IMG/VR virus record: IMGVR_UViG_3300038468_000223
Location: 41,512 to 105,511 of that record
Reading direction: 5' to 3' (one strand)
DNA length: 64,000 bases
From: a virus
The notes under the pieces are model-generated. The model was not told where the DNA came from. It searched no databases and was given only the letters and a program-made list of their open reading frames with translations. Below, piece by piece: positions 34,554 through 62,373 of this stretch. Position 1 is the stretch's first letter. Every line of letters begins with the position of its first letter. Both the position numbers and the translations under genes were made by a program.

Positions 34554-35828
34554 ATGTACCGCCACGTACATTCGATCGGGCTCGGCGCTTCCGAGTTCGA
34601 TCAAAATCTCACGACCTATTTGACGACGAACGCTCCGCCGGAGGTCAGGCAGGCGATCTCGACGGAGGCGTCGGCCGAGCAGTTCGCCGCGCGCTCTCAA
34701 GCCACGATCGATTCGATGCGCGACATCGCCGAGGGCAAACAGCTCACGGTGGCGCAAGCAACAACGATCCTGACCACTGCCGCGAGCGCGATGGCCTTCG
34801 TCGCTGCAGGAGGCGTCGGATCGATCCTCGCTGGTGCCGGAGCCGCGGCCGCCACGACCGTCGCGCTCGGCGCCGCCGCTTCGGCCGGTGCGGTGATGGC
34901 GGCGATGGTCGCGGTGGTCATCGTCGTGGTTGCGGCCGTCGGATGGGCGCAAGGTGGGACGGGCAAGTGCGGGGACGCCTCGACGATCCCGTCCAGCCCT
35001 ACCGATCCTAGGTGGGTGGAGTTCACGGAATACGGACCAATCGCACAGCCTCGAAATGACTTCGAACGCTGGGCATCTCCAGTTCTAGTTCTGAACCACG
35101 AAATGAACGACAACTGCAGAAGCAGTCTGCCGGACCTTGTGCAGACGCTAGCATCGTTGTGGAATGAGCGGCACGAGGCCACGTCGATCCTGACCTACAT
35201 CGGTTACGACATCGACAAGCTTCCTACTTCAGGCCGATACAATTGGCCTGTCTACCCCAATCCACTCAACATCGTCGAGTTCGACCTGCGTGGTGGATCG
35301 ACACTCGGCGCGCCGAAAAAGATCTCCGTCAATCTCGGCAAGTTCATTCCTACTACACCTGCAGAGAAGTCGTTGCTGGTTGGACAGCTCAAAAAGGTGA
35401 GCCTGGTCGAACAACTAAACCTGAGCACGCCGTCGACGCAGTCTGCACAAACATCAACCGCGTCGAAAGTGATCGCTGGAGTCGCGGTGACCGCAGCGAT
35501 TTCTGCCGCGGCACTTTGGGCGTACGCCTACTACCAGAAGATCACCTTCGGGTCGGCGTTGTACAAGGTGGTGGGGCGCTTCGCGAAAGAGAACCCGATC
35601 GCCGTCGACGTTCCGCGCCGACGCACGTCGAAGGGACGCAGGCTGGCCTATCGCGTCAGACTCGATGCGTCGCCCTCGATGGAGTATGTTCAGGTCATGC
35701 CGGATGGATCAGCGATCCTGTTGCGCCACGGCCACCAGGTTGCGAAGTTCCGGCCTACGACCTACCAGCTCCCGAAGATCCATGCCGGCGACGGCGAGCT
35801 TCTGATCTTCGTCGATCAGCTCATCTGA
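34554..35828 (+). CDS. Membrane protein, putative virion component
   Basis: N-terminal IGLG, two hydrophobic segments, AKENP after the second TM. Confidence 0.7.
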   Translation: MYRHVHSIGLGASEFDQNLTTYLTTNAPPEVRQAISTEASAEQFAARSQATIDSMRDIAEGKQLTVAQATTILTTAASAMAFVAAGGVGSILAGAGAAAATTVALGAAASAGAVMAAMVAVVIVVVAAVGWAQGGTGKCGDASTIPSSPTDPRWVEFTEYGPIAQPRNDFERWASPVLVLNHEMNDNCRSSLPDLVQTLASLWNERHEATSILTYIGYDIDKLPTSGRYNWPVYPNPLNIVEFDLRGGSTLGAPKKISVNLGKFIPTTPAEKSLLVGQLKKVSLVEQLNLSTPSTQSAQTSTASKVIAGVAVTAAISAAALWAYAYYQKITFGSALYKVVGRFAKENPIAVDVPRRRTSKGRRLAYRVRLDASPSMEYVQVMPDGSAILLRHGHQVAKFRPTTYQLPKIHAGDGELLIFVDQLI

Positions 35829-35841
35829 GGAGAACGCCACG

Positions 35842-36582
35842 ATGCCCACGCTCACGCATCCGATCTTCAGCTCGGCGTACAACTTCGTGCAGCAGCAGCC
35901 GGTAGCCGCCGTGCAGCCGCTGCCGCCGACGCAGACGGTGACGACGCCGATCCAGACGCAGTCTCCGTCACCGCCGGTGATGGCGGTGAATCCGCAGGCG
36001 CCGGTCACGGCGGCGGTCCCCAACACGAACGGCCTCACCGAGATTGCGGACCGCCTGCTCGCGATGGACCAGGCGGCAGGAGGGCCGCAGAACATCGCGC
36101 AGAACATCGCGGCGGTCCAGAGCAACACCTCCTTCGGACCCGGGAACCCTCCGGTACGCCTGCTCACGGGGCTGCAGAACACGCTCTACGGCAACCCGAC
36201 CCAGAACCCGACCCAGTACAACGCCGATCAGCTCAAGGCGTCGGCGACGTACCTGCGCGACGTGGCAACGCACATGACGGCGCTCGAGGCGCAGGTGGCG
36301 ACCCTGCAGCAGCAGCTCGCTGCGGCCAACGCCGTCCCCACCACCACGAACGTGACGGTGCCGCAGGCACCGGCGTCGGGGTCGAGCATCAACTGGACCA
36401 CGCTCCTCGTCAGCGTGGGCGTCATCGCGGCGGTCGGCATCGGCGCTTGGTACGTGATGACGCACCGTCGGAAGCCGGCCGGAGTGCGCGAGGAGGAAGA
36501 GGAAGAGGCTCCGCCGCGCGTGATCGGCGGCGAGAACAAGCGCCTGTTCCCGCCGGCGCCGTCGCAGAAGCGGAAGAAGTGA
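35842..36582 (+). CDS. Single-TM putative virion protein
   Basis: GAGGAG SD; coiled coil, TM, basic/acidic tail. Confidence 0.7.
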   Translation: MPTLTHPIFSSAYNFVQQQPVAAVQPLPPTQTVTTPIQTQSPSPPVMAVNPQAPVTAAVPNTNGLTEIADRLLAMDQAAGGPQNIAQNIAAVQSNTSFGPGNPPVRLLTGLQNTLYGNPTQNPTQYNADQLKASATYLRDVATHMTALEAQVATLQQQLAAANAVPTTTNVTVPQAPASGSSINWTTLLVSVGVIAAVGIGAWYVMTHRRKPAGVREEEEEEAPPRVIGGENKRLFPPAPSQKRKK

Positions 36583-36592
36583 GGAGAGGACG

Positions 36593-37324
36593 ATGAGGAA
36601 GATCAAGGCAGCAAAGAAGATCAAACACGGCGCGTACCGCGGCTGGGAAGTGATGGTCATCGACGCGACTGGCGATGGATTCCCCGGATTGTGGTGGGCG
36701 CACGCCAAACCTGCCGGCCATGCCCAATGGGTGATCTCCACCGAGCAGCGTTCATCCGCACAAGCGTTCGCTGTCATCCACCACAAGATCGACAAGATCC
36801 TCGCGCGCGCTGGTTTCCAGAAGAACCCCGTCAGCAACACCGAGACTGCCGTCATGATCGTCCTCGGAGCGGCGGCCGTCGGGGCGCTGCTCTACGCCTT
36901 CTGGCCCAAGTCGACGGCGGCGGCACCCGCCGTCACGCCGGCACCCGCACCGACGCCCGTACCGGCTCCGGTGACCAAGCCGAGCATCCCGGTCGCGACC
37001 AACAAGACGGTGGCCGTCGGTCCCGAGGCCAACGGGCAGACCATCACCCTGAACGTAGGGGACGTCCTCATCGTCCGCCTGCCGCAGCAGTCGGACACGG
37101 GCTACGTCTGGGAGTTCGCCGTCACAGGGACCTCGGTCGCTCCCAACACGAGCTACACCGAGGGCGGTACGGGCCCCGGCGACGTCCAGACGCTGGTGTC
37201 GGTCTTCAACGTCATGAGCCCCGGTTCGACCTTCGTCTCGGCGGTCTCACGCCGCGGCGGCGCGTTCGGCCAGAGCTTCACCGTCGCAGTCAACGTCCCC
37301 TCCACCACCGGCATCGAGGTCTGA
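36593..37324 (+). CDS. TM protein with C-terminal chagasin (I42 cysteine-protease inhibitor)-like domain
   Basis: NGQTITLNVGDVLIVRLPQQSDTGYVW...G.G...F....PG.T.V....RR matches the I42 pattern (NPTTGY.W variant); KNP before TM. Confidence 0.65.
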   Translation: MRKIKAAKKIKHGAYRGWEVMVIDATGDGFPGLWWAHAKPAGHAQWVISTEQRSSAQAFAVIHHKIDKILARAGFQKNPVSNTETAVMIVLGAAAVGALLYAFWPKSTAAAPAVTPAPAPTPVPAPVTKPSIPVATNKTVAVGPEANGQTITLNVGDVLIVRLPQQSDTGYVWEFAVTGTSVAPNTSYTEGGTGPGDVQTLVSVFNVMSPGSTFVSAVSRRGGAFGQSFTVAVNVPSTTGIEV

Positions 37325-37327
37325 TCC

Positions 37328-39466
37328 ATGAGCGGCTTCGCCCCCGGCGTCGACAGCGCCCGCAAGAACCTGAACGGCGTCACGATCACCGAGAAGGCGT
37401 TCCCGCAGAACGCCGCGCACGGGGCGAAGTTCAGTCTGGAGGAGGTCGCCGCTCGCATCCTCAAGGGCGGCGCCGATCCGCGGATCCGCGGGTGGGCAGG
37501 CAAGGCGCTCGTCGAGGCGGGCTCGCCGAGCGACCGCCGGGAGCAGGCGCGTGCGGTGCTCAAGAAGCTGCGCTCGCAGACGGTCTACGTCGCCGATCCC
37601 GTCGGCGTCGAGTTCATCGCCGACGCGAAGTACACGCTCTGCCTCGACGAGCTGGGGCTGTGCCTTCCTGGGGCGGATTGCTTTCCGAAGGGAACGCTCC
37701 TGCTTCGCGACGACCTCGAACTCGTTCCGATCGAGGACATCCAGGTCGGCAACAAGATCTGGGGCTTGGACCAGTGGACGACCGTGCAGGCGAAGGCTTC
37801 CAAGGGCATCCTTGCGATCGATGCCCTCTTCTTGAACAACGGCTCGGTCGTCAAGCTCACCGGCGATCATCACGTCTACGTGGGTCGCTGCGAACAACAT
37901 GGACATGCCTGTTCGTGCAGATGGTCCGAGCGAAAGGAACAGCGCATCCGCGTCTCCGATCTTCGAGAAGGGGACGTGCTTGCGCAGCCCGAACGTGTTC
38001 CGTTCGGAGAAACCCCCATCTGGCGGCTCGGCGGCGATGAGTGGGCGATCTCACCGAATCGGCTGAAAGAAGATCGTGCGCCCGGTCGAATGCTTCGGGT
38101 CAAAGGGATCGAACGCGCGGTGATGGAGGTTCCGTGCTTCGACATCCAGACCGAGGACCACCGCGTCTACCTGCCCGAGCACGACGTGACGGTGAGCAAC
38201 TGCGACGATCTCGCGGTGGCCCTCGGCTCCGGACTGCTCGCCCTCGGCATCCCGGTGCAGGTCGTCGCCCAGTCCTTCGACAACTCGGGCATCCCGTCAC
38301 ACGTCCTCGTCGCCGCCGAGACGAGCCCCGACTACTGGGAGCGCGTCGATCCCTCGTCGCGCACCTACGACGTCGGTCAGTACTACCCCGCCGCTCGCGA
38401 GTGGTGGTTCGACCCTACCGGCGAGATCAAGCTCTCCGACGGCCGGCTGCGCGGCAGGTTCGTCGGCGTCGGGAACCTGCCGGACGTCTTCCCCGGCTAC
38501 CCGGGCACCGGGCTCGGGCAGTACGAGAACGTCTCGTTCCAGATCCCCAACATGACGCCCGAGCCGACGGCGAAGCAGAAGGAGGCCGTCTTCCTCACCG
38601 CGACCGAGCAGCTCTACGCCGCCGTCAACGGGCTCGACCTCGCGGTGACCGGACTGGAGAAGGCCGTCGGGCAGCTCGAGAGCGTACGACAGGTCCTGCG
38701 CCCCAGCGATCCGTTCGACCCCGGTGCGGAGGTGACCAGCGTCTCGCAGTTCCCGCGCGACGGGACGTGGTCGAAGAACATGAGCGCGATCTCGCACTGG
38801 CTGATCGACACGGGCAAGCGGCTCGTGAAGGCCGGCCGCGAGGCGCTCGCCGGCGGCCGGCGCATCTTCCTCGATCAGAAGACGCAGGACGCGTACATCG
38901 AGGGCAACGACTCCGACCCCTTCCGCCTCAACACCATCTTCAAGGTGAACGACGCGGTGCTCGCGTTCGTCAACCCACTCGGCGCCGCAGTCGCCGGGCT
39001 CACCGCGAAGGAAGGTCGCGTCCTCTCCAAGGAGGAGACGGAGGCCGAGCTGCTCGCCGCGCGGTCCAGCACGAGCGCGCAGGGCATGCAGCAAGGGCTC
39101 GGCAACCCCATCATCATCGTCGTCGTCGCCGTGGTCGCCGGCGTCATCGTCACCGGCATCGTCGCGATGCTGATCGTCAAGGAGTGGTGCCACACCGCCG
39201 AGGTGACCGCGATCGAGGCCACCAGGCAGGAGATGATGAAGTGTGTCGCCGCCGGCAGGTGCACACCCGACGACGTCATCAAGATGGAAAAGCAGCAGCA
39301 CGACAACCGCGTCGCCGAAGAGAAGGCCCGGTCCGAGAGCGACTTCTTCTCCAAGCTGGAGAAGATCGCGATCTACATGGCCGTCGGCGGCGCCGTCATC
39401 GCCGGTGCCTACGTCGCGGCCCCCGTCGTGAAGACCTTCGCCGAGAAGTGGAGCCACCGCACCTGA
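37328..39466 (+). CDS. Transglutaminase-like cysteine protease with intein and two C-terminal TM helices
   Basis: YVADP..VE; spliced GADCDDLAV..GS.L..LGIP; SHV; W..VDP (Cys-His-Asp triad). Confidence 0.85.
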   Translation: MSGFAPGVDSARKNLNGVTITEKAFPQNAAHGAKFSLEEVAARILKGGADPRIRGWAGKALVEAGSPSDRREQARAVLKKLRSQTVYVADPVGVEFIADAKYTLCLDELGLCLPGADCFPKGTLLLRDDLELVPIEDIQVGNKIWGLDQWTTVQAKASKGILAIDALFLNNGSVVKLTGDHHVYVGRCEQHGHACSCRWSERKEQRIRVSDLREGDVLAQPERVPFGETPIWRLGGDEWAISPNRLKEDRAPGRMLRVKGIERAVMEVPCFDIQTEDHRVYLPEHDVTVSNCDDLAVALGSGLLALGIPVQVVAQSFDNSGIPSHVLVAAETSPDYWERVDPSSRTYDVGQYYPAAREWWFDPTGEIKLSDGRLRGRFVGVGNLPDVFPGYPGTGLGQYENVSFQIPNMTPEPTAKQKEAVFLTATEQLYAAVNGLDLAVTGLEKAVGQLESVRQVLRPSDPFDPGAEVTSVSQFPRDGTWSKNMSAISHWLIDTGKRLVKAGREALAGGRRIFLDQKTQDAYIEGNDSDPFRLNTIFKVNDAVLAFVNPLGAAVAGLTAKEGRVLSKEETEAELLAARSSTSAQGMQQGLGNPIIIVVVAVVAGVIVTGIVAMLIVKEWCHTAEVTAIEATRQEMMKCVAAGRCTPDDVIKMEKQQHDNRVAEEKARSESDFFSKLEKIAIYMAVGGAVIAGAYVAAPVVKTFAEKWSHRT
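37679..38200 (+). mobile_element. Mini-intein (174 aa, no homing endonuclease)
   Basis: N-terminal CFPKGTLL, PIEDIQVG, block B LTGDH, block F CFDIQTEDH, C-terminal VSN followed by Cys+1. Confidence 0.9.
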
Positions 39467-39531: not shown

Positions 39532-39972
39532 GTGATTTACGTCAAGGGGTCGCACATCAAGTTCGAGCTGGTCTCGGGCGAGATCCTCTCGCTGCCGAAG
39601 TCCTTCGGGATCATCCACGATCAGGAGGGCCAGGACATCCCGCGCTGCGAGGTGTACTTCGGTCCGTTCAAGGTGATCGGGCGCGACGCGGGGCTGACGC
39701 CGGCCGCACGAGCATACTTCGGCGACGCCTATCACCCCGATCGGGTGTCGGTTGACCTACCTGAAGGGTCGTGGAATCCTATCTCCGAAGTGGTGCAGAT
39801 CTTCTACAGGCGTCCGTCGGGGGTCAGAGTCGCCAAGCACACCGGCAAGTACCACCACCCGTTCAAGAAGGTGGCGAGGCCGACGTTGTTGAAGGCGGCC
39901 CACGAGCGCTTCTACAAGTTCGAGATGACGAGCTTCTGCATCATCGATGACCGAGGGTTCGTCTTTCCGTGA
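39532..39972 (+). CDS. Hypothetical protein
   Basis: Real C-terminal part of track ORF 38041-39972; start uncertain. Confidence 0.6.
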   Translation: MIYVKGSHIKFELVSGEILSLPKSFGIIHDQEGQDIPRCEVYFGPFKVIGRDAGLTPAARAYFGDAYHPDRVSVDLPEGSWNPISEVVQIFYRRPSGVRVAKHTGKYHHPFKKVARPTLLKAAHERFYKFEMTSFCIIDDRGFVFP

Positions 39973-42014
39973 AGCCCAAGAGCTACGTCGATGCGATGCG
40001 GAAGTTCCGGGGCGTGAGCAAACACGCCGCGGAGGGTCATCGCCGCCTCGTCGGATTGGCAGAGGGATCGACCTCAAATCCGCTGCGGGTTCCGGCCTCG
40101 TACGATCGTCAAGAGGAACTTCAACGATATTTGACCGAGAACTACGAAAGCTGTATCGTCCAGAAAACTGGTGGTGAGAGTGCTGCCGGTGCGCGCGACA
40201 AGACTCACTGCGCTAGGGTCGCGTGGAAGAGGGCTGAAGAGAGCGGGCGGTTTTCGGACTATCCAGCGTTCCACGGAGGAAGCAGGAACATGTCACGTCG
40301 CAACCTGAAGCCGCGCGCGCGGCGCCACGATCGGTGGGGTCGCTTCGCCGAGGTGATGGAGAGCAAGGCGCAGCGCAAGGCCGCCCGCAAGAAGTCGGAC
40401 AAGGCCGCGCACAAGGCCAAGAAGACGAGCAAGAAGGCCGCTGCCAAGCGCTCCGCGATGCAGGTCAAGGCCTCGAAGACCGCGGCGCAGGCGGAGAAGT
40501 CGTCGGCGATCTCGCGCGGCAAGGCGGAGGCGGCCAAGAAGGCTGCCGCCACCAAGGCGGAGAAGCACGCCAAGCGCGTGGCCGCCGGCAAGAAGGCGGC
40601 CGCCGCCAAGGCGGAGAAGCACGCCAAGCGCGTGGCCGCCGCCAAGAAGGCCGCGGAGACGCGCAAGAAGAACGAAGCCGCGGCTGCCAAGCCGGCGGCG
40701 AAGAACGAAGCCGCGGCTGCCAAGCCGGCGGCGAAAAAGAAGCCGAAGAAGACGGCCGCCAAGAAGCAGGCGAAGAAGGTCAAGAAGGAGAACAAGGCCA
40801 TGGCGCTGACCAACAGGCAGAAGGCGGCTCGGAAGGCCGCGAGGACGCGCGAGAAGAACCGGAAGGCCGAGGAGGAGCGCAAGGCGGCGGCCGCGCGCAA
40901 GCGTGCGCGCAAGGCCAAGGGCGGCGCCAAGAAGAGCAAGGGCACCAAGAAGAGCAAGGGCAAGAAGGGCGGCGCCAAGAAGACCGCCAAGAAGTCGAAG
41001 GGCAAGAAGGGCAAGCGCAAGGCCACCGTCGCCACCGTCCCCGGCACGCGCCGCGTGAAGGTCGGCGGGCACTCGCGCCAGGTCCCGAGCAACATCCGCA
41101 TCACCATCGGCGCCCCGGTGCACGCCCGCAAGGCGGCCAAGCGTCCGGCCAAGCGCAAGGGCGCGCGCGAGGACCTCGTGCTCGAGTCGATGTCGAACCC
41201 GATCTCCGAGGAGTACGCGCTCGAGAACCCGATGACGGGCGGCGAGATGTTCCTCGCGGCGGTCACGGGCGGCCTCGGCATCCTCGCCGCGAGCGGCCTC
41301 GATCGCTACCTCGCGACGCGCGACCAGACGCCGGCGCAGGGCCAGCCCGCGCTGACCCCGGCCGAGCAGGTCGCGTCGCCGCCGGGCATCCTGCGCGTCC
41401 TCGCCCAGGGCGGCATCGCGGCGGCGGCGTTCGTCGGCGCGTACTTCGTCCCGCAACCGATGGGCCGCGCGGCGCTGCAGGGCGCCGGCCTCGGCGCGTT
41501 CTCGCACCTCGTCGGGCAGGCCTTCATGACCTACCTCGTGCCGCGGTTCTTCAAGTCCAACGACACCGCGCGCAAGATGTTCCCCGCCGAGATCGCGGTC
41601 TACGAGCGCCTCAACCCGCCGCAGGCCACGACCACCGGGCAGCAGGGCCTGCCGATGGGCGTCGGCGGGTACCTGCCGCGCCACGGCATGGGCGTCGACC
41701 CCGCCGCCGCCATGATCGTGCGGCCGCAGAACCTCGACTACATGGGTCCGGCGCTGACGCGCAACCCGGTCGCGCCCCCGGCGCCGGCCGCGAACGGCGG
41801 CGGCGGATGTGGCCCGTGCGGCGGGTGCGGGGACCGCATCGAGCAGGGCGTCCCCAACGCGATCGAGAACGTCGCCAACGCCGCCAACGCGCCTGCCTCC
41901 ACGTCCGAGACCCTCTCGAGCGTGATGAGCGCGACGCGCGACGCGGTCTGCAACCCCGGCCTCGCCGGCACGAGCCGCTGGTACAACGCCGTCACCTTCG
42001 CGCCGGAGCACTGA
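39969..42014 (+). CDS. Lys/Ala-rich histone-H1-like putative core protein with ChaB-like N-terminus and membrane C-terminus (possible internal start 40290)
   Basis: About 270 aa of K/A repeats (AEKHAKRVAA x2, KNEAAAAKPAA x2); SNP..ENP followed by hydrophobic helices. Confidence 0.75.
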   Translation: MKPKSYVDAMRKFRGVSKHAAEGHRRLVGLAEGSTSNPLRVPASYDRQEELQRYLTENYESCIVQKTGGESAAGARDKTHCARVAWKRAEESGRFSDYPAFHGGSRNMSRRNLKPRARRHDRWGRFAEVMESKAQRKAARKKSDKAAHKAKKTSKKAAAKRSAMQVKASKTAAQAEKSSAISRGKAEAAKKAAATKAEKHAKRVAAGKKAAAAKAEKHAKRVAAAKKAAETRKKNEAAAAKPAAKNEAAAAKPAAKKKPKKTAAKKQAKKVKKENKAMALTNRQKAARKAARTREKNRKAEEERKAAAARKRARKAKGGAKKSKGTKKSKGKKGGAKKTAKKSKGKKGKRKATVATVPGTRRVKVGGHSRQVPSNIRITIGAPVHARKAAKRPAKRKGAREDLVLESMSNPISEEYALENPMTGGEMFLAAVTGGLGILAASGLDRYLATRDQTPAQGQPALTPAEQVASPPGILRVLAQGGIAAAAFVGAYFVPQPMGRAALQGAGLGAFSHLVGQAFMTYLVPRFFKSNDTARKMFPAEIAVYERLNPPQATTTGQQGLPMGVGGYLPRHGMGVDPAAAMIVRPQNLDYMGPALTRNPVAPPAPAANGGGGCGPCGGCGDRIEQGVPNAIENVANAANAPASTSETLSSVMSATRDAVCNPGLAGTSRWYNAVTFAPEH

Positions 42015-42078: not shown

Positions 42079-43413
42079 ATGAACCCGTCGAACCAGATCA
42101 ACGTCAAGTCCGCATCGAAGTTCTACCGCGAGATGGGCCTCGGGCAGCCGCCCGACGCCTACGTCTCCGGCCCGCGCACCGCCGACGGCCAGCTCGCCGG
42201 CCCCGTGGGCATCGGCGACATGATGGACGCCGTCAAGAAGGCGCTCGAGGTCAACTTCCTGCAGGTCCCGGTCATCGAGTACGTGGCGTGGACCACGACC
42301 GTGCCGCTGACCGACGCGCAGGTGACCAGCACCTTCGGCGACACCATCAACCCGCTCGGCGGGGCGGCGCAGGTGCCCGGCATCCTGAGCGTCGACAGCT
42401 CGTTCGTCATCAACGGGCTGCTGCAGGTGGACATGATCTGCCTCGGGTTCGGGGTGCACATCTTCGGCGAGCCGCTGGCCTTCACGGTGCCCGGCAACTC
42501 GATCGAGCCGGCGCCGGCGAACGGCACCGCGCCGCTGGTCAGCCCCGACGTGTTCACCCAGAACGACCTCGCCAACGGCGCGCTCGGCGCCACGAGCGGG
42601 ATCAACCCCGCCACGATGGAGTGGGGCGTCGCCGACTGGAACGCCGCCTGGCACATGGCCAACGGCTACGAGTTCCAGTGGCTCTACCAGCAGCGCCACC
42701 TGCTCGTGAAGGAGCTGGCCGCCGACGTCTGCTACTTCGGCCCGTACGCCGAGGCGCTCGCCGCCGGCACCAGCGACATCGAGGTGCAGCAGTACATCCG
42801 GCAGGTGAACGACACCTACCGGACCCAGGGCGGCGGCGGCATCTTCGCCCCCATCAACTGGCGCCGCGTCGGGTCGGCCACGGTCAACCAGAACAACGTC
42901 GGCATCTTCCGCGCGACGCGCGACTTCGACCAGGCCAACTGCACCTGGGGCGGCATCCGCAACCAGGGCGCGACCGGCTGCTGCAACCCGTTCCGGCGCC
43001 TGTCGCGCCCGGTCCTCCTCGAGAAGGGCATCCCCATCGGGATGCAGCTCGTGGCCAAGGACCAGTACCACCAGGCGCAGATGCAGCGCTACCTCTCGAT
43101 CAGCGAGAGCCAGGGCGGCAACCTCGCGACGGTCGCGTACGACCAGAGCGTCGGCGCCGGTGGCCTCGCGGGCACCGGCGTCTCGCCGGTCGGCCTCGAG
43201 CTGACGCTCGACGCGAACCCGGTCCCCGTGCCGCAGCGGGTCCAGACCAACCGCGTGCTCTACAAGGGCGGCACCATCAAGGTGGCCATCCTGATCAAGG
43301 GCTACGAGGTGACCGGCGAGTGGAAGCAGCTCGTCGCGAGCTACCCCGGCGTCCTCAACGTCGGGGGCGTTCAGGGCATGAGCGGCGTGGGAGCGGCGGC
43401 CCTGCACCGCTGA
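42079..43413 (+). CDS. Probable major capsid protein (beta-rich, jelly-roll candidate)
   Basis: 444 aa, strongly GC3-biased codons, no TM, follows core protein; no HK97 neighbourhood genes. Fold is inferred. Confidence 0.55.
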   Translation: MNPSNQINVKSASKFYREMGLGQPPDAYVSGPRTADGQLAGPVGIGDMMDAVKKALEVNFLQVPVIEYVAWTTTVPLTDAQVTSTFGDTINPLGGAAQVPGILSVDSSFVINGLLQVDMICLGFGVHIFGEPLAFTVPGNSIEPAPANGTAPLVSPDVFTQNDLANGALGATSGINPATMEWGVADWNAAWHMANGYEFQWLYQQRHLLVKELAADVCYFGPYAEALAAGTSDIEVQQYIRQVNDTYRTQGGGGIFAPINWRRVGSATVNQNNVGIFRATRDFDQANCTWGGIRNQGATGCCNPFRRLSRPVLLEKGIPIGMQLVAKDQYHQAQMQRYLSISESQGGNLATVAYDQSVGAGGLAGTGVSPVGLELTLDANPVPVPQRVQTNRVLYKGGTIKVAILIKGYEVTGEWKQLVASYPGVLNVGGVQGMSGVGAAALHR

Positions 43414-43499
43414 TCGAACCGCTCCGCGCTCGTTGAGAGGGTGCCGGCGGCCCGAGAGGGGGCACCGGCACCCTTTCTTCTAGAGGGAAAGGAAAGGCC

Positions 43500-44102: not shown

Positions 44103-44105
44103 CCG

Positions 44106-44927: not shown

Positions 44928-44944
44928 AAGGGACGAGGGACACC

Positions 44945-54723: not shown

Positions 54724-55448
54724 TGGGACGCCGCGGGTTCGGACTCAAGCTGGAGGCGCCGGTAGGGTTGCCGCTGCGGCCGCACCTCGGCGCCGCCGGC
54801 GATCCGATTCCGTCATCGGCCTCCATCGAAGACCTCGTCGACAAGGTCCGCGATCAGGGTCCGACCGAGGCGTGCGTGGCCTTCTGGCTCGGCGGCTCCC
54901 TCGAGATCGAGGCGCGCGCGCAGGGCATCGACCTCGGCGGCGAGATCTCGCGCCGCGGCCTGTACACGATGGCGCGCGAAGAGGAGGGGCTCTCCATCGT
55001 CGACACGGGGAGTCTCCCCTCGCTCGCCGTCTTTTCGGCGCAGAAGCGCGGCATCGTCTCCGAGCTGCGCTGGCCGTGGTCGGTGGCCGACATCAACGAG
55101 CTTTTGCCCTGGGACGTCTTCCAGCACGCGGTGAGGGTGACCGGCATCTACCGCGCCGAGGATCTCGGCGCCGTGCAGCTCGCGATCGTCAAGCGCCGCC
55201 CCGTCGGCTTCGACATGGTCGTGGACGAGTCCTACTACCACTACACGGGCGGCCTCTACGTGCCCGGCGGCAGGGTCCTCGGGCGGCACATGCAGACGAT
55301 CGTCGGCTACGAGCCCGGTCGCTACCGCGTGCTCGGGTCCTGGGGGCCCGACTTCGGTGAGAAGGGGTACGCCTGGGTTCCGGAGAGCATCGTCGACATC
55401 GCGACGAGCCGCTACGTCGTGAGCATCGCTCCGCAGGGGGTCGAATGA
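54723..55448 (+). CDS. Papain-like (C1A) cysteine peptidase
   Basis: VRDQGPTEACVAF, GRHMQTIVGY, GSWG.DFGEKGY (Gly in place of the usual Asn). Confidence 0.85.
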   Translation: MGRRGFGLKLEAPVGLPLRPHLGAAGDPIPSSASIEDLVDKVRDQGPTEACVAFWLGGSLEIEARAQGIDLGGEISRRGLYTMAREEEGLSIVDTGSLPSLAVFSAQKRGIVSELRWPWSVADINELLPWDVFQHAVRVTGIYRAEDLGAVQLAIVKRRPVGFDMVVDESYYHYTGGLYVPGGRVLGRHMQTIVGYEPGRYRVLGSWGPDFGEKGYAWVPESIVDIATSRYVVSIAPQGVE

Positions 55449-55717
55449 AGACGATCGTTCTCGTCCTGCTCCTCGTCGTCGCTTGCGCGCCGTCGCCGGC
55501 CCCTCCGCCGCCGCTCGTACTCAGTGGGACGCCCTGCGAGCGGGCCTGCACGAACCTGCGCGCCGCGGGCTGCCCCGAGGGCGACGAGGTCAAGGGGCGC
55601 ACGTGCGAGACCGTCTGCGAGGAGAACGCGACGCTGCTCAACGTGAGCTGCATCGCGAGCGTCGAGCCGAAGCCGGAGAAGATCCGCGCCTGCGGGCGTG
55701 TTCGCTGCATGAAGTGA
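55445..55717 (+). CDS. Cys-rich lipoprotein
   Basis: VVAC lipobox; CERAC.NL...GC. Confidence 0.7.
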   Translation: MKTIVLVLLLVVACAPSPAPPPPLVLSGTPCERACTNLRAAGCPEGDEVKGRTCETVCEENATLLNVSCIASVEPKPEKIRACGRVRCMK

Positions 55718-56621: not shown

Positions 56622-56694
56622 GGACTCCTAGCTCAATCGGCAGAGCAACCGGCTTTTACCCGGGAGGTTGCGGGATCGTTGCCCGCGGGGTCCA
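56622..56694 (+). tRNA. tRNA-Lys(TTT)
   Basis: Loop CTTTTAC; atypical T loop. Confidence 0.8.
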
Positions 56695-56701
56695 CGCAGA
56701 T

Positions 56702-56774
56702 GGATCCGTGGCGCAGTTGGTAGCGCAGCCGGCTCTTACCCGGAAGGTTGAGGGTTCGACCCCCTCCGGATCCA
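56702..56774 (+). tRNA. tRNA-Lys(CTT)
   Basis: Loop CTCTTAC. Confidence 0.9.
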
Positions 56775-56778
56775 CTAT

Positions 56779-56852
56779 TCCGGCCTCGTTCAATGGCAGG
56801 ACGGCAGCTTCTGAAGCTGCTCATCGGGGTTCGATTCCCCGGGCCGGGACCA
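56779..56852 (+). tRNA. tRNA-Gln(CTG)
   Basis: Loop TTCTGAA, CCA encoded. Confidence 0.9.
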
Positions 56853-56950
56853 AGCACTTCGTTCGTTGACAACCTGACGGGACCTGGCGCGGCGTCGCGC
56901 CTCTCTCGAGATCCATCAGGCGCGCCGCCGTCGTGGCGGCGCGCGTTCGT

Positions 56951-57022
56951 TCCGGGGTAGCACAATGGTCGTGCGTGCGTCTGTTCAACGCGAAGATGGG
57001 GGTTCGATTCCCTCCTCCGGAG
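56951..57022 (+). tRNA. tRNA-Asn(GTT)
   Basis: TCCGGGG acceptor, G73; loop CTGTTCA. Confidence 0.85.
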
Positions 57023-57025
57023 CTT

Positions 57026-57097
57026 GGTGACGAAGCTCAATGGCCGAGCAAGGGCCTGTTAGACCCGAGGAAGAAGGTCCGATTCCTTCCGTCACCG
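57026..57097 (+). tRNA. tRNA with GTT anticodon (Asn-like, atypical)
   Basis: Acceptor GGTGACG/CGTCACC, loop CTGTTAG, weak anticodon stem. Confidence 0.6.
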
Positions 57098-57102
57098 CTC
57101 TC

Positions 57103-57171
57103 GCCGACGACCCCATGGCGGGACCTCGCCTCGTAAGCGGGACCGATCGCGTTCGATTCGCGACGTCGGCT
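57103..57171 (+). tRNA. tRNA-Thr(CGT)
   Basis: Loop CTCGTAA. Confidence 0.8.
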
Positions 57172-57181
57172 CTCAGTAAAT

Positions 57182-57254
57182 GTCCTCGTCTTCTAGTGGT
57201 CCAGGACGCTAGGTTTTCACCCTGGCAACGCGGGTTCGATTCCCGCCGAGGACA
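57182..57254 (+). tRNA. tRNA-Glu(TTC)
   Basis: Loop TTTTCAC. Confidence 0.85.
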
Positions 57255-57262
57255 CTCATCAT

Positions 57263-57335
57263 GCCCCCATCGACTTCTGGTGAGGTCGTCGGCCTCTCAA
57301 GCCGACCAGGCTCGGTTCGATTCCGACTGGGGGTA
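57263..57335 (+). tRNA. tRNA-Glu(CTC)
   Basis: Loop CTCTCAA. Confidence 0.85.
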
Positions 57336-57347
57336 CTGTCAGTAAAC

Positions 57348-57422
57348 GCATGGAGAGCAAGTCTGGTGATTGCGGTTGGCTGAAAACCGACAGAACTCGG
57401 TTCGATCCCGAGTCCATGCACC
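57348..57422 (+). tRNA. tRNA-Phe(GAA)
   Basis: Loop CTGAAAA. Confidence 0.85.
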
Positions 57423-57483
57423 GTCTGGATCGAGACGCTTGCGACTCGTGCAACTCTTTCGAGAGTTGCTCTAGACGATCCTA

Positions 57484-57559
57484 CGGGGTGTAGCCCAGTG
57501 GAAAGGCGCCTGCTTCGGGAGCAGGAGATGCGCGAGTTCGATTCTCGCCGCCCCGACCA
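57484..57559 (+). tRNA. tRNA-Pro(CGG)
   Basis: Loop TTCGGGA, CCA. Confidence 0.9.
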
Positions 57560-57563
57560 AAAA

Positions 57564-57635
57564 CAGCGTGTAGCGCAACGGTAGCGCGCTTCGTTGGGGA
57601 CGAAGAGGCAGCGGGTTCGATTCCCGCCACGCTGA
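57564..57635 (+). tRNA. tRNA-Pro(GGG)
   Basis: Loop TTGGGGA. Confidence 0.9.
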
Positions 57636-57727
57636 CTGACGTGTTCGGCCGAGGAGATCCTACACGCTGGCGCAAGCCATCCTCTTTGGAATGAGACCTC
57701 GCGGTCTCCTCACTCGAACGCGTTTCT

Positions 57728-57803
57728 CGGGGAGTAGCACAGATGGAAGTGCACGAGCTTTGGGTGCTCGTCGTCGCGGGTTCGAATCCCGTCTCCCCGA
57801 CCA
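57728..57803 (+). tRNA. tRNA-Pro(TGG)
   Basis: Loop TTTGGGT, CCA. Confidence 0.9.
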
Positions 57804-57875
57804 GGCGTGGTGCGCCAATCCGGATCGGCCTACTCGGACGCGAGTAGGTTGGTGGCGCACCATGCCTCCGTACAT

Positions 57876-57945
57876 GGTGAACGAAGGTATCTGGTGATGC
57901 CGGCAGGTCGTGACCTTAGGCGGGTTCGATCCCCGTCGTTCACCC
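57876..57945 (+). tRNA. tRNA-His(GTG), short or degenerate variable region
   Basis: G-1:C73, loop TCGTGAC. Confidence 0.65.
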
Positions 57946-58056
57946 TGGGTAGCTGCGAACCCGATGAGAGACCGAACGCCGAAGTTGCCTGATCAGCCCT
58001 TCGCTCGGGGCGACCCTCGGTTGCGACCTCGCAAGTAGCAGCGCCCTCCCCTCTTC

Positions 58057-58132
58057 CTCCGGGTCCGGGTGGACTGTTCCCGGCTCGCGTCTCCTAAGCG
58101 CGCTGCGAAGGGTTCGATTCCCTTCCCGGAGA
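58057..58132 (+). tRNA. tRNA-Arg(CCT)
   Basis: Loop CTCCTAA. Confidence 0.8.
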
Positions 58133-58140
58133 CTTCAACT

Positions 58141-58215
58141 GCCTCGTGATGCGACCGGTGTCGCAGTTCCGCTGTCTACGGAGTGAGACGGGTTCGATTC
58201 CCGTACGAGGCGCCA
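58141..58215 (+). tRNA. tRNA-Asp(GTC)
   Basis: Loop CTGTCTA, G73-CCA. Confidence 0.85.
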
Positions 58216-58216
58216 C

Positions 58217-58284
58217 AGGTCCGCGCACTGGGTGCAACACGGTTTCCAAGTCCGTGGAAGAGGGTTCGAATCCTTCCGGATCTG
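58217..58284 (+). tRNA. tRNA-Trp(CCA)
   Basis: AGG acceptor, G73, loop TTCCAAG, minimal D arm. Confidence 0.7.
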
Positions 58285-58285
58285 C

Positions 58286-58359
58286 GGGGGCGTCGTCCAA
58301 CGGGAGGACTGCTGCCTTGCAAGCAGCAAATGCCAGTTCGATTCTGGCCGTCTCCACCA
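58286..58359 (+). tRNA. tRNA-Ala(TGC)
   Basis: G3:U70, loop CTTGCAA, CCA. Confidence 0.9.
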
Positions 58360-58362
58360 TCT

Positions 58363-58436
58363 GCCGGCTTCTTCTGGCGAGGCGTCGTCCTTGGTATGGA
58401 CGCACGAGGCGAATTCAACTCTCGCAGCCGGCTCCA
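58363..58436 (+). tRNA. tRNA-Thr(GGT)
   Basis: Loop TTGGTAT, CCA. Confidence 0.75.
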
Positions 58437-58438
58437 GT

Positions 58439-58510
58439 GCCAGTTTTGTCTTGGAGACGAGGCGGTTTTGTACCTCGTCTGAGCGCGTTCGACTCGCGCA
58501 CTTGGCTCCA
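58439..58510 (+). tRNA. tRNA-Thr(TGT)
   Basis: Loop TTTGTAC, CCA. Confidence 0.7.
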
Positions 58511-58511
58511 C

Positions 58512-58584
58512 GCGAGCATGGTGTATTGGTGCATGCAGGTCTTCAAACCTTGCGGTGCCCGTTCGAATCGGGTTGCTCGCTCCA
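58512..58584 (+). tRNA. Gly-type tRNA body with TCA anticodon (possible opal suppressor)
   Basis: GCG acceptor, U73-CCA, loop CTTCAAA. Confidence 0.65.
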
Positions 58585-58608
58585 GAGTTCGATATTATCG
58601 TTCGCTCC

Positions 58609-59097
58609 ATGGGCTACGATGACAAAGAAAAACAACGTGCATATCAGTTGGCCTGGCTGCAAAGACGCCGTCTGAAGTGGCTAGAACAAAACGGCCCGTG
58701 CACTGTGTGCGGTTCGACAAAGGATCTTGAAGTAGATCACATCAACCCCAATACGAAGGTCGATCATAAGGTATGGGGCTGGTCCGAGAAACGACGTTCA
58801 AAGGAGTTGGCTAAATGCCAAGTTCTTTGTGCCGAATGCCACCAGAAAAAGACGTCGGCCCATGCACGTAGTCTGGTGCGACACGGGACATCTACTATGT
58901 ACGACAGAATCGGTTGTAGATGCTTCAAATGTCGAGCGTACAAATCGGCGGTGAACAAACGACGATACGAGCCCGAACCATCCGGTGATGGGCGCGGTCT
59001 GCAAAACCGCGAGCGATCGGTTCGACACCGATCGGGCTCTCCAGCTCGAGGTCTTCTTGAGCAACTGCGGAGGACGTCCGCCGGGAAGGCTGCGTAA
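58609..59097 (+). CDS. HNH endonuclease inside tRNA array
   Basis: CTVCG...LEVDHINP...KCQVLCAECH, HGT..MY...CRC..C; lower GC. Confidence 0.85.
   Translation: MGYDDKEKQRAYQLAWLQRRRLKWLEQNGPCTVCGSTKDLEVDHINPNTKVDHKVWGWSEKRRSKELAKCQVLCAECHQKKTSAHARSLVRHGTSTMYDRIGCRCFKCRAYKSAVNKRRYEPEPSGDGRGLQNRERSVRHRSGSPARGLLEQLRRTSAGKAA
58969..59043 (+). tRNA. tRNA-Cys(GCA)
   Basis: Loop CTGCAAA, U73-CCA. Confidence 0.85.
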
Positions 59098-59193
59098 CCC
59101 CGTTACTGCGTGCAGCGCCCAGCGTCTCGGGTGAGCGGAGACGCTGATCGAAGCAAGGCCGGGCTTCGGAAGGTTCGATCCCTTCCTCGATCA
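59044..59193 (+). ncRNA. tRNA-like RNA with large structured insertion
   Basis: T arm GAAGG-TTCGATC-CCTTC; acceptor-like pairing; internal hairpins. Confidence 0.5.
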
Positions 59194-59196
59194 TCT

Positions 59197-59264
59197 GCCC
59201 CCGCTAGTGGATGGGTGGCGGTCCTCTAAACCGCACAACGCAGGTTCGACTCCTGCCGGGGGCG
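59197..59264 (+). tRNA. tRNA-Arg(TCT)
   Basis: GCGGT-CCTCTAA-ACCGC. Confidence 0.7.
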
Positions 59265-59294
59265 CCGAGTTGACAGGAGGTCTGTCAGCTCACA

Positions 59295-59340
59295 GCGGGT
59301 GTCGAGAAGTTGACCGGCTGCTGGAGCCGTACCCGCACCA
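59295..59340 (+). pseudogene. tRNA remnant or minihelix (Gly-like acceptor, ACCA end)
   Basis: GCGGGTG/TACCCGC-ACCA with a single inner stem. Confidence 0.5.
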
Positions 59341-59346
59341 GCACTC

Positions 59347-59418
59347 TTCTCTGTCCGGGCGGACTCCCGGCGCGAGCCTCCGAAGCTCGCCGTTGCGGTT
59401 CGACTCCGCACAGAGAGA
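59347..59418 (+). tRNA. tRNA-Arg(CCG)
   Basis: Loop CTCCGAA. Confidence 0.8.
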
Positions 59419-59424
59419 CTTCTT

Positions 59425-59494
59425 CTCCCCACCAGCGGACCTGGCGCCGAGGCTACGAACCTTGGTTGCGGTGGTTCAACTCCATCTGGGGAGA
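59425..59494 (+). tRNA. tRNA-Arg(ACG)
   Basis: Loop CTACGAA. Confidence 0.8.
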
Positions 59495-59495
59495 C

Positions 59496-59569
59496 CGCGG
59501 GAAGGGTCGTCCTAGCTCCCAACGAAGGCTCATAACCTTCGCCAGGCCGGTGCAACACGGCTCCCGCAA
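59496..59569 (+). tRNA. tRNA-Met(CAT), initiator-like
   Basis: C1xA72 mismatch, loop CTCATAA. Confidence 0.7.
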
Positions 59570-59570
59570 C

Positions 59571-59628
59571 GCACGTGTGGCGAAAGGCATACGCAGACGG
59601 TCTCAAAAACCGTTGCCGAAAGGCGCTC
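59571..59628 (+). pseudogene. tRNA-Leu(CAA) lacking T arm and 3' acceptor strand
   Basis: 5' half with ACGGT-CTCAAAA-ACCGT and variable arm, then runs into tRNA-Val. Confidence 0.65.
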
Positions 59629-59700
59629 GCGCGGCTCGCCGTCTGGTGACGGCACCGGCGTGACACGCCGGCGAGGCGGGTTCGATCCCCGCGCTGCGCA
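59629..59700 (+). tRNA. tRNA-Val(GAC)
   Basis: Loop GTGACAC, A73. Confidence 0.8.
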
Positions 59701-59702
59701 CC

Positions 59703-59756
59703 GGGGGCTCGAAGACAGTAAGTCCTTTTCGGCATCCTCTTCGCGTCCCCCGACCA
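59703..59756 (+). pseudogene. tRNA-Ala(GGC)-like remnant
   Basis: GGGGGC...CGTCCCCC ends, TCGGCAT, no T arm. Confidence 0.4.
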
Positions 59757-59829
59757 CGAAGCGGTAAGGGCTGGTCGCCCTACGGCGTCTGATAAGCGCC
59801 GCGCTCAGGTTCGATTCCTGCCGCTTCGA
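59757..59829 (+). tRNA. tRNA-Ile(GAT), 8/4 acceptor/T-stem fold
   Basis: CGAAGCGG/CCGCTTCG, T stem CAGG/CCTG, loop CTGATAA. Confidence 0.75.
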
Positions 59830-59857
59830 CCCCATCCATGCTACGAAAGCGAAGACC

Positions 59858-60643: not shown

Positions 60644-60655
60644 CTCGCTTGACTT

Positions 60656-60742: not shown

Positions 60743-60749
60743 CTCTCTT

Positions 60750-60835: not shown

Positions 60836-60840
60836 CCCGT

Positions 60841-60924: not shown

Positions 60925-60928
60925 CTAC

Positions 60929-61001: not shown

Positions 61002-61002
61002 C

Positions 61003-61257
61003 CTAGACGCGGCGCAGGTGGCTCGCGCGATGAGATCTCGGAGTGCGCGGCTTCTTGCGAGCCACAGCGTCCTTCTCCTCCTCGACGTACGCCGCCTTGT
61101 CGAGCACCGACGCGATGGTCGTGAGGCTGTCCCTGATCGTCTGGATCGACGGCCCGTCGTCCGGGATGCGCAGCCACTTGAGGAACTTCTTCGACATGTG
61201 GACGTCGAAGGTGTCCTCGGACGAGCTGGTGATGCTGAACAAGATCTCGTCGGCCAT
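61003..61257 (-). CDS. Hypothetical protein
   Basis: MADEILFSITS... real part of track ORF. Confidence 0.5.
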   Translation of the reverse strand: MADEILFSITSSSEDTFDVHMSKKFLKWLRIPDDGPSIQTIRDSLTTIASVLDKAAYVEEEKDAVARKKPRTPRSHRASHLRRV

Positions 61258-61333
61258 GGGGGCGAAACGTAACCAGCGTCGAACGCCGAGCAAGCGCTGA
61301 ACGACGAGGGGCACAGGTGGCGGCGGGGCTCGG

Positions 61334-61648
61334 CTAGGAGGGGACGTCTGCCGGTCGGTACCCGGCCGCGATGAGGGCGTCGATGCGGGCCCACATTTTC
61401 TGGAGCGCCTCGTTCTCCGTGGTTCCGGTTGTCTCGATCTTTTCCTTCGTGCCGTTTGGGCTAAAGCCGTACGTGAACACTCTCGGAGGTTCGTCCTGCC
61501 CGGACCACGAAGTGGTCGCGTACCACCCGCGGTACTTGTACCCCCCGAACAGGCCCGGGAGCGGATCCTTCGACCAGCGGTAAAATTCGAGCGTGATCCA
61601 TACGAGCGCGATCCCGGCACCCACCCTGACCAGCGTCTTGGGGTTCAT
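61334..61648 (-). CDS. Small TM protein (MNP start) with RGW module
   Basis: ATGA overlap; YKYRGW...RIDALIA. Confidence 0.65.
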   Translation of the reverse strand: MNPKTLVRVGAGIALVWITLEFYRWSKDPLPGLFGGYKYRGWYATTSWSGQDEPPRVFTYGFSPNGTKEKIETTGTTENEALQKMWARIDALIAAGYRPADVPS

Positions 61649-62373
61649 GCCGCCCTCGCGAGGATCTTGTCGATGTGGTTCTTGGCGCCGACGACGGCGC
61701 GCTCGCGCGTCCTGTCGCAGATGGCCGTGGCCGCCGGCCGGAAGCGCGAGAGGCGCAGGACCCCGCCGTAGTCGGCGCAGAACCCGCCGTCGGTCTGGTG
61801 GACGTGGATGGGGACCCCGCGGTGGGTGACCGTGGAGTCGTACTTGACCGGGTTCGTGACCTCGTACGCCGGCCGGGCGTAGGCCGAGCGCGGCCTGGTC
61901 ATGAGCCAGACGAGCCCGACGATCGCCGTTGCCGCGGCCACCGCGAGCAGGAGCGTCCCGCCGCCGCCGGCGCTCGCCGGCGGCGCGGGCTCCGGAGGGG
62001 GCTGCGCGGGGCCGGCGGGGCTGTACCAGACCGCCAGCGGCCCGTACATGAGCGTCCCGTCGTAGTCGGGCAGCGTGGCCGGCTTGGCGTCCTTCCAGTT
62101 GGCGATGACCTTCAGGGCGATCGGCGGCGTCGGCGCGTTCTGGAGGGTCCCCAGCTTCGCCGCGAGCCCGGCGACCGCGGTCGCCATCTCGGGCGGCGGC
62201 GCGCCGGTGCTCACGACCTGCCAGCCACGCTGCTCGAGGTAGGCCTGCACCCACACGTCGTTGGTCTTGACCCCTCCCACCTCGCCCGGCGCGACGAGCG
62301 CGAAGAGGTAGCGGCCGCCGGGCGTGAGCGCGCGCGAGGCGAGGGGGGACCAGTAGGGTTCGAGGCTTGCCAT
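61645..62373 (-). CDS. TM protein with TNP-linked RGW-type module
   Basis: TM, VTNP, HRGV...HIDKILARA. Confidence 0.7.
   Translation of the reverse strand: MASLEPYWSPLASRALTPGGRYLFALVAPGEVGGVKTNDVWVQAYLEQRGWQVVSTGAPPPEMATAVAGLAAKLGTLQNAPTPPIALKVIANWKDAKPATLPDYDGTLMYGPLAVWYSPAGPAQPPPEPAPPASAGGGGTLLLAVAAATAIVGLVWLMTRPRSAYARPAYEVTNPVKYDSTVTHRGVPIHVHQTDGGFCADYGGVLRLSRFRPAATAICDRTRERAVVGAKNHIDKILARAA

Follow-up and report, generated by a model that had tools for sequence, protein, structure and literature searches.

Bonds between asparagine and proline (Asn-Pro, hereafter NP) are cut autocatalytically in the single-pass anti-sigma factor RsgI and in the reovirus protein mu1/VP5, in which an acidic group polarizes the Asn of Asn42-Pro43 (PMC10328401). 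YscU and FlhB also undergo autocleavage at Asn-Pro (PMC3189125), and the known self-cleavers hold this bond in a folded, strained turn (PMC10328401). In adenovirus, the viral protease recognizes a short motif, (M/I/L)XGG-X, when it matures pVII and p-mu, the precursors of core proteins (PMC4246237). Here we analyzed the NP sites in a 64,000-nucleotide stretch of viral DNA (the window), which is the last 64 kb of the 105,511-bp IMG/VR virus record IMGVR_UViG_3300038468_000223, a genome with a 127-bp terminal repeat and 67% G+C. Judging from the comparison of homologous proteins, these sites appear to be copies of one lineage-specific short linear motif, [RK]-[ED]-N-P-[LIVM], or with R in the last position inside Arg-rich arms. 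The motif is real and under purifying selection, it marks module junctions, and it is specific to one branch of a virus group. It lies where a single-pass membrane anchor is connected, through a flexible stretch, to a module that varies and may be an Arg/Lys-rich arm, a small domain, or a basic leader of short length. As the leading mechanism we propose that NP is a processing site, with the chain being cut at or next to the Asn-Pro bond, and we give this reading a probability of roughly 0.35.

The described systems each share some features with this locus. RsgI is likewise a single-pass membrane protein with a conserved Asn-Pro near its transmembrane (TM) helix, and the modules parted by its cut are on the same side of the membrane. 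In RsgI, however, the NP occupies a fixed turn between two strands (beta1/beta2) of a folded periplasmic domain, whereas the sites described here, which have no sequence similarity to RsgI, lie in linkers of variable length without a predicted fold, on the side of the basic cluster. The mu1/VP5 protein is a virion protein with a functional Asn-Pro and an assisting acidic group (PMC10328401; PMC9148132), and Glu or Asp is also the commonest residue before the Asn here. The site there is single and close to the N-terminus of a folded capsid protein in an RNA virus of eukaryotes; here the sites are many, and the proteins that hold them are membrane-anchored and encoded by a DNA virus with genes of prokaryote type. 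The first-pass annotation of the window had pointed to the NPTH cleavage of FlhB and YscU, and in these proteins, as in EscU, the Asn-Pro bond does lie in the cytoplasmic part of a membrane protein (PMC3189125; PMC4620466). This analogy had to be abandoned, as none of the 63 NP contexts of the genome reads NPTH, the residue after the Pro is aliphatic or Arg, and a search of the entire 105-kb genome for Bac_export_2 (PF01312) found nothing at E≤1, while the controls did match. Adenovirus is similar in being a jelly-roll-capsid DNA virus whose Arg-rich, genome-associated precursors are cut at short repeated motifs. Its p-mu also ends in a hydrophobic segment after the last site, like the site that precedes the TM helix (pre-TM site) here. 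The adenovirus motif is GG rather than NP, and processing here is a prediction; far-clade relatives of this virus carry GG at the pre-TM site. No adenain-like protease was seen in Pfam and PHROGs scans of the gene module, in which PF00770 and PF02902 were not searched for specifically.

For this analysis, 36 related loci were gathered via the capsid protein, and three NP-bearing proteins were then searched for in large protein collections; proteins are named here by the lower coordinate of their genes in the window (Table 1). The family of the 34554 protein has a layout of TM helix, basic linker, [RK]-E-N-P-[LI], spacer, and a conserved C-terminal domain of ~70 amino acids (aa). Among 36 representatives that are at most 50% identical to one another, the NP between the TM helix and the domain is kept in 34, and the two exceptions, H-P and V-P, both keep the Pro. 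The Asn is never replaced by Ser, Thr, or Asp, and N41 and P42 are invariant columns in the family alignment A4. The distances on either side vary freely, with 7-54 aa from the TM helix to the NP and 0-53 aa from the NP to the domain. Shuffling of the linkers yielded an NP in 5.4 of the 36 (maximum 13), and in 17 linkers the Asn of the NP is the only one present. A search of whole records with the full alignment matched N-terminal regions only and gave no extra copies of the NP-bearing tail, for which an ESM Atlas search also returned no usable match.

The 52553 family consists of five proteins whose anchor and C-terminal domain are 38-56% identical. Three of them carry N-terminal modules that are unrelated to that of the window and to one another, while P0118 has the module of the window, and the part that can be aligned starts exactly at an invariant [E/D/A]-N-P-[ILV] before the anchor. 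N73 and P74 are invariant in all five (alignment A3). Invariant residues in a linker of free length and sequence among diverged homologues, the pattern of a short linear motif, are thus found in the 34554 family (34/36) and in alignments A4 and A3. The N-terminal module of 52553 itself (Y-P-R-W ... C-A-G-V-A-W-K-R ... G-R-Y-R-D-Y-P-G-F) is shared with 39969, and BLAST gives 61-70% identity over 53-59 aa to the N-termini of the 39969 homologues of loci L002 and L003; in close orthologues of 52553 it has been swapped for unrelated modules.

In the 39969 family, all 15 homologues keep the second of the two pre-TM NP sites, and 14 of them also keep the first, at which P0110 reads A-M-P. The two sites read F-F-E-N-P-[LR] and Y-A-L-E-N-P-L-S-G-G-E and are ~7-30 aa apart, and the first takes the form F-x-N-P-x-Y in some homologues. 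The pre-TM NP of 39969 also occurs in seven related loci (L002-L006, L011, and L017, the last as R-N-N-P). Most homologues have a long basic arm with 5-7 junctions per protein, in which an acidic/hydrophobic patch is followed by E-N-P and then R-[KR]-[KR] between Arg-rich blocks, and the consensus upstream of these junctions is EE-(M/Y/V)-A-(L/A)-E. An acidic residue is the commonest at position -1 of the NP both in these arms and in the 34554-family linkers. The basic arms of 14 homologues contain 77 NP, as Pro follows 77 of 108 Asn (71%) at a Pro content of 4.9%, a 14-fold excess; after the TM helix, Pro follows 10% of Asn. The NP is therefore invariant or near-invariant in three protein families, and the proposal that it sits at module boundaries beside membrane anchors as a selected signal is borne out in the 34554, 52553, and 39969 families. 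The 39969 protein (homologues P0099-P0113) resembles a protamine or histone that is anchored in a membrane and encoded next to the capsid gene. Its arm is Lys/Ala-rich in the window, while relatives have Arg-rich blocks of ~20 and ~78 aa with E-NP or E-A-P junctions between them, a pattern that suggests internal tandem duplication.

The pre-TM site is concentrated in one lineage. Strong TM helices with an NP at most 15 aa upstream make up 5 of 26 in the window, 3 of 35 in the near clade (the six closest loci), and 1 of 135 in the far clade (Fisher P=4e-4). Overall NP density is equal in the distant loci, and the contrast rules out a general property of TM flanks. At the homologous pre-TM site of 39969 the distant clade reads R-G-G-G-M-G-x-A-E, and at the repeat junctions E-A-P-R-R-R (EAP observed 18 times against 2 expected). 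A helix breaker or Pro is thus the older feature, and the Asn is an innovation of one branch.

Counts within the single genome say less. The whole genome has 63 NP against 46.8 expected, and an NP lies within 15 aa upstream of 5 of its 44 TM helices. The enrichment beside TM helices that had been anticipated holds against global NP density (1.18 expected, P=0.007) and is lost when each flank is shuffled (2.85 expected, P=0.13), so that the in-genome count alone is marginal and weak evidence for the motif. Our own translations and codon arithmetic placed an Asn codon at every NP site cited by the first-pass annotation (Table 1), but two of these look incidental. The capsid candidate does start with MNP, which is found in this genome only and in none of its 97 homologues. 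The LGNP of 37328 does not stand as a copy of the motif, as the two homologues that have the anchor read GSP and V-P where the window reads GNP, so that Pro alone is kept. A DNA-level element was also considered and rejected, since the DNA around the NP sites has nothing in common beyond the preferred codons AAC CCG/CCC.

Table 1. Coordinates in the window of NP-bearing proteins, candidate enzymes, and other features. Hyphens set off the NP within each site; the last column gives the NP sites of the first-pass annotation with the position of the confirmed Asn codon.
Position	Strand	Feature	NP site (position)	Asn codon confirmed
3-602	-	Start of 292-aa membrane protein, C-terminal part upstream of the window; NP 8 residues before TM	SIL-NP-NTPKKK (563-558)	ILNP, ORF (open reading frame) starting 602
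34554-35828	+	Membrane protein with 2 TM; tail: TM, basic linker, NP, spacer, ~70-aa conserved C-terminal domain	AKE-NP-I (35592-35597)	AKENP 35592
36593-37324	+	Small N-terminal domain, NP, TM, chagasin-like domain	QK-NP-VSNTE (36824-36829)	QKNP 36824
36593-36832	+	Y/W-R-G-W domain, N-terminus of 36593		
37328-39466	+	Transglutaminase-like cysteine-protease-fold protein with mini-intein; NP precedes C-terminal anchor	LG-NP-III (39104-39109)	LGNP 39104
37679-38200	+	Mini-intein of 37328, ~174 aa		
39532-39972	+	146-aa soluble protein, invariant C39, H109, C136; candidate reader or processing factor		
39969-42014	+	Membrane-anchored Lys/Arg-rich protein, directly upstream of capsid candidate; third NP immediately pre-TM	STS-NP-L (40077-40082); MS-NP-I (41196-41201); ALE-NP-MTGGE (41226-41231)	SNP 41196; LENP 41226
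39969-40298	+	N-terminal region of 39969 sharing the 52553 module		
42079-43413	+	Major capsid protein candidate, 97 uncharacterised homologues	M-NP, at start (42082-42087)	MNP 42082
42079-44927	+	Conserved trio: capsid candidate, 43500-44102, 44106-44927		
44924-46309	+	LysM, duplicated domain, TM, basic/acidic linker, NP, C-terminal domain	SYE-NP-V (46022-46027)	SYENP 46022
47443-47913; 49187-49645; 49659-50123	+	Three paralogues of ~155 aa		
48769-48981	+	Y/W-R-G-W domain, C-terminus of 47929		
52134-52508	+	Small protein, NP 8 residues before C-terminal TM	FP-NP-ISR (52374-52379)	FPNP 52374
52553-53158	+	N-terminal module common with 39969, NP, TM, conserved C-terminal domain	GRE-NP-LPSKTKDAL (52727-52732)	RENP 52727
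52553-52732	+	N-terminal module of 52553		
54448-55717	+	Two small lipoproteins flanking peptidase gene		
54723-55448	+	Papain-family peptidase, E 2e-7		
56622-59831	+	19-tRNA array		
61334-61648	-	Small membrane protein starting with M-NP	M-NP-KTLVRVGAG (61645-61640)	MNP, start of ORF 61648-61334
61645-62373	-	N-terminal domain, TM, basic linker, NP, small C-terminal domain	EVT-NP-V (61854-61849)	VTNP 61854-61849
61648-61878	-	Y/W-R-G-W domain, C-terminus of 61645		

We favor processing because the NP is strict within the free linker of the 34554 family, because unrelated modules converge on it (A3), and because the NP repeats of the 39969 arms resemble those of a polyprotein, the -1 residue is acidic, Asn-Pro precedents exist, and candidate enzymes are encoded nearby. 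The cut could be self-catalyzed, with the Asn side chain attacking its own carbonyl aided by the neighboring Glu or Asp, or it could be the work of a factor encoded by the virus, for which the candidates are the 39532 protein with its Cys and His residues and the product of the gene just upstream, with its transglutaminase-like cysteine-protease fold. Basic peptides and small domains would in this way come off their anchors as the virion matures, similar to the processing of basic core proteins in adenovirus. The earlier description of these proteins as mini-polyproteins gains from the interchangeable far-side modules of the 52553 orthologues and from the one family with 5-7 polyprotein-like junctions, while the cut itself is predicted. 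Several observations weigh on the other side. The NP sites lie in predicted-disordered or variable-length linkers, unlike the strained turn of a folded domain in which the known self-cleavers place their Asn-Pro, and at the pre-TM site of 39969 the AlphaFold2 (AF2) helix begins 3 residues after the Pro at a T/S-x-x-E capping box, so that a structural role would suffice there. Distant relatives have GG-GM at the pre-TM site and E-A-P-RRR at the junctions, indicating that Asn chemistry is not universally required, and some NP copies follow leaders of 1-7 residues only (e.g., in 61334-61648), with no cargo to release. The co-occurrence with 39532, described below, amounts to two independent events only, and the genes concerned are neighbors.

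Two other processing signals were compared. An [S/A/G]-x-E before the NP was considered as a site like those of giant-phage prohead proteases and was dropped, since that protease family (S77/S78; PF03420, PF04586) is absent from the genome and the Glu is not invariant. Class III (prepilin) signals are similar in having a short basic leader, a conserved junction, and a Glu about five residues into the hydrophobic helix (NP-I-T-T-A-E, NP-V-T-D-T-E, NP-L-S-G-G-E here). In contrast to these signals, which require Gly at -1, every copy here has Pro, and the leaders reach 400 aa. The Glu at +5 is present in 36593, the 39969 family, L004:6646, and L006:17758, and absent in 52134, 37328, 61334, and the ORF starting at 602. 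The prepilin peptidase Peptidase_A24 (PF01478) was not found in the virus genome, although a host enzyme is possible.

The 39532 gene is present in exactly 7 of 28 related whole records, which are those with an NP at the pre-TM site of their 39969 homologue. With the window included, 8 genomes have both the gene and the pre-TM NP and 21 have neither, a suggestive co-occurrence. The place of the gene is constant, with the transglutaminase-like gene on one side and that of the basic membrane-anchored protein on the other. In the tree of capsid proteins, six of the seven records with 39532 fall in one clade with the window, whereas L017 lies inside the distant clade next to L036, which has neither the gene nor the NP. 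The 39969 homologue of L017 is of the distant type, yet it reads R-N-N-P-A-M-N-G-G-E, and as L017 is phylogenetically separate, 39532 and the NP would have come together in two independent events. A metagenome scan with the 39532 family gave four usable loci, two of them too short to use further; of the others, L051 has a pre-TM YVLS-NP-LSGGE and L050 has three E/A-NP-basic junctions. The 39532 protein had no Pfam, PHROG, or PDB match and no usable match in the ESM Atlas, and a PDB profile search returned only HtrA at a non-significant E of 0.55. For the neighboring 37328 protein, the intein-free homologue of L002 matches Transglut_core (E 0.0045); a further candidate enzyme is the papain-family peptidase 54723 (E 2e-7). 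The mini-intein of 37328 interrupts the transglutaminase-like domain immediately ahead of what is presumably its catalytic Cys. It begins with Cys, contains T-G-D-H, and ends with S-N followed by Cys, with weak matches to Hint families (E 0.018-0.07), while the L002 homologue reads through (G-D-C-D-D-L).

It is possible, though we would not call it probable, that the NP is left uncleaved and acts as a docking or sorting tag on the juxtamembrane stretch. The tag would be bound by a virus protein, for which the 39532 family, the capsid protein, and other conserved proteins of the shell are candidates, and the binding would gather the right membrane proteins into the patch that becomes the virion membrane. 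The logic is similar to that of NPxY-type sorting signals, which are read by coat adaptors, and the F-x-N-P-x-Y form of the first site in some 39969 homologues fits with this. A docking tag would also explain why the NP is invariant in a free linker, as a short linear motif is, why it is common to unrelated membrane proteins of one gene module, and why it is present after leaders of 1-7 residues, where nothing can be released; the small soluble 39532 protein that co-occurs with it would be a possible reader. Five to seven copies within one Arg-rich arm would nevertheless be odd for an address tag, and both the virion membrane and the binding of NP are themselves predictions. The membrane is deduced from the many TM proteins that adjoin a weakly jelly-roll-like capsid candidate, and it is on this ground that the earlier naming of the NP-bearing proteins as virion membrane proteins seems reasonable.

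It is somewhat doubtful that the role of the NP is purely structural, with Asn-Pro, as Gly-Gly or Ala-Pro in relatives, ending a disordered arm and setting the start of the next helix or strand, and with the likeness among sites stemming from paralogous, shuffled anchor modules. A hydrophobic-[S/T]-x-x-E-hydrophobic stretch following the NP can be read as a helix N-cap, with a hydrophobic staple and a capping box. In an AF2 model of the C-terminal part of 39969 (m4be4b97b3cf9, 33 sequences), a confident TM helix starts at residue 44, corresponding to G424, and N420-P421 stands 3 residues before it at the edge of a linker with a low predicted local distance difference test (pLDDT) score. T423 would be the cap, and T423-G-G-E426 has the form of a capping box, which applies to the pre-TM site of 39969 only. 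The pattern NP-[ILVM]-[ST]-x-x-E-hydrophobic recurs in four independent proteins, including 39969, 36593, and the small Arg-leader proteins of L004 and L006. A structural role also fits with the GG or A-P of the far clade at homologous positions, with the anchor of 37328, where the Asn is replaced by Ser or lost and the Pro stays, and with the loss of in-genome significance once local composition is controlled. It does not account for an Asn that is never Ser, Thr, or Asp in linkers whose distances to the TM helix and the domain vary by ~50 residues, nor for the post-TM sites, which are far from any helix start. The extended upstream consensus of the arm junctions and the near absence of NP before the 135 TM helices of relatives with equal overall NP density also speak against it. 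Finally, it is very improbable that the sites reflect chance in the Pro-rich, polar TM-flanking linkers of a high-GC genome with examples picked after the fact, as the flank shuffles (2.85 against 5 observed, P=0.13) and the two unconserved cases (capsid MNP and 37328 LGNP) might suggest, because three families conserve the NP, the far clade almost lacks it upstream of TM helices, and Pro follows Asn in the basic arms 14 times as often as expected, which refutes chance for the 34554, 52553, and 39969 families, leaving it as an option for the single sites in 36593, 52134, 44924, 61645, and the ORF starting at 602.

Returning to the proposed processing and its possible reader, we tentatively suggest, as something that is more likely to be wrong than right, that the NP is a maturation or cargo-selection code of an undescribed group of large (55-130 kb), apparently tailless viruses rich in membrane proteins and with a jelly-roll-like capsid. 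In such a code, the 39532 protein would read [RK]-[ED]-N-P beside anchors and would then act in one of two ways, by a cut that releases small domains and basic, protamine-like peptides or by loading the proteins into the virion membrane. Such a code would bear on how bacterial viruses with an internal membrane, a field that has been reviewed (PMC6356626), choose their virion membrane proteins and on whether any of them mature by proteolysis. If true, it would have no described precedent, as a proteolytic-maturation or sorting-signal system, among membrane-containing viruses with genes of prokaryote type. A cut at the Asn-Pro bond would make it a viral, multi-substrate addition to the few known systems of Asn-Pro autoproteolysis, and without a cut it would stand as a linear motif that serves sorting or docking in a virus whose genes are of prokaryote type. 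In either case, a virus lineage without a cultured member gains several handles in the form of a four-to-five-residue motif, several natural substrates, and a candidate partner gene.

The genome context is that of a virus group with few recognizable structural genes. Gene calling on the whole 105-kb genome gave 159 genes, and a hydrophobic helix is present in 28 of the 159 proteins, the majority of which are encoded in the block at 34.5-56 kb of the window. This block of ~40 genes has almost no Pfam or PHROGs matches, the small terminal domains included, while 5-34 kb of the window is a phage-like replication module with a family A polymerase, a primase-polymerase, a UvrD-like helicase, ThyX, and RadC. 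No terminase, portal, or tail gene was recognized. The only genes found in all 36 related loci are the capsid candidate and the next two, and this trio forms the conserved core shared across an undescribed group of viruses, whose genomes span ~55-130 kb. Some of the 97 homologues of the capsid candidate are on contigs of up to 198 kb, and the closest relative has a capsid protein 72% identical to that of the window. The AF2 model of the capsid candidate (pLDDT 81) gave only weak jelly-roll capsid matches, namely to PRD1 P3 (Z 5.8 over 177 aligned residues) and also weakly to HHIV-2, SPV1, and P23-77. Searching viral contigs with its single sequence, and GenBank phages by tblastn, left the capsid candidate without a match, and a 10-kb megablast query matched no phage either.

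Several other features of the window were seen in passing. A small paralogous domain (Y/W-R-G-W ... H-K-I-D-K-I-L-A-R-A) without a Pfam match occurs N-terminally in 36593 and C-terminally in 47929 and 61645; each copy is on the NP/basic side of the TM helix, and BLAST among the copies gives E values of 2e-4 and 0.03. The 44924 protein has an N-terminal LysM, two near-identical domain copies of ~100 aa, a Thr/Pro-rich stalk, a TM helix, and the SYE-NP tail, and it lacks a signal peptide. The array of 19 tRNAs includes Asn, three Pro, two Glu, two Lys, and three Arg tRNAs, which correspond to the residues of the NP motif and the basic arms. One tRNA of the array has the anticodon TCA and was called as selenocysteine (SeC) by ARAGORN; TGA recoding, which this tRNA raised, is not supported, as TGA ends 121 of the 159 genes. 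Three paralogues (47443, 49187, and 49659) without a family match have a common N-terminal T-R-G ... I-N-A-A-Q-I-G-P and end in A/V-E-E-L-P-A/G, and they may be a set of variant virion surface proteins. The papain-family peptidase gene is flanked by those of two small lipoproteins with lipobox-like signals (F-A-Q-G-C and V-V-A-C), which may form a lysis or entry cassette with it, and these lipoproteins point to a bacterial host.

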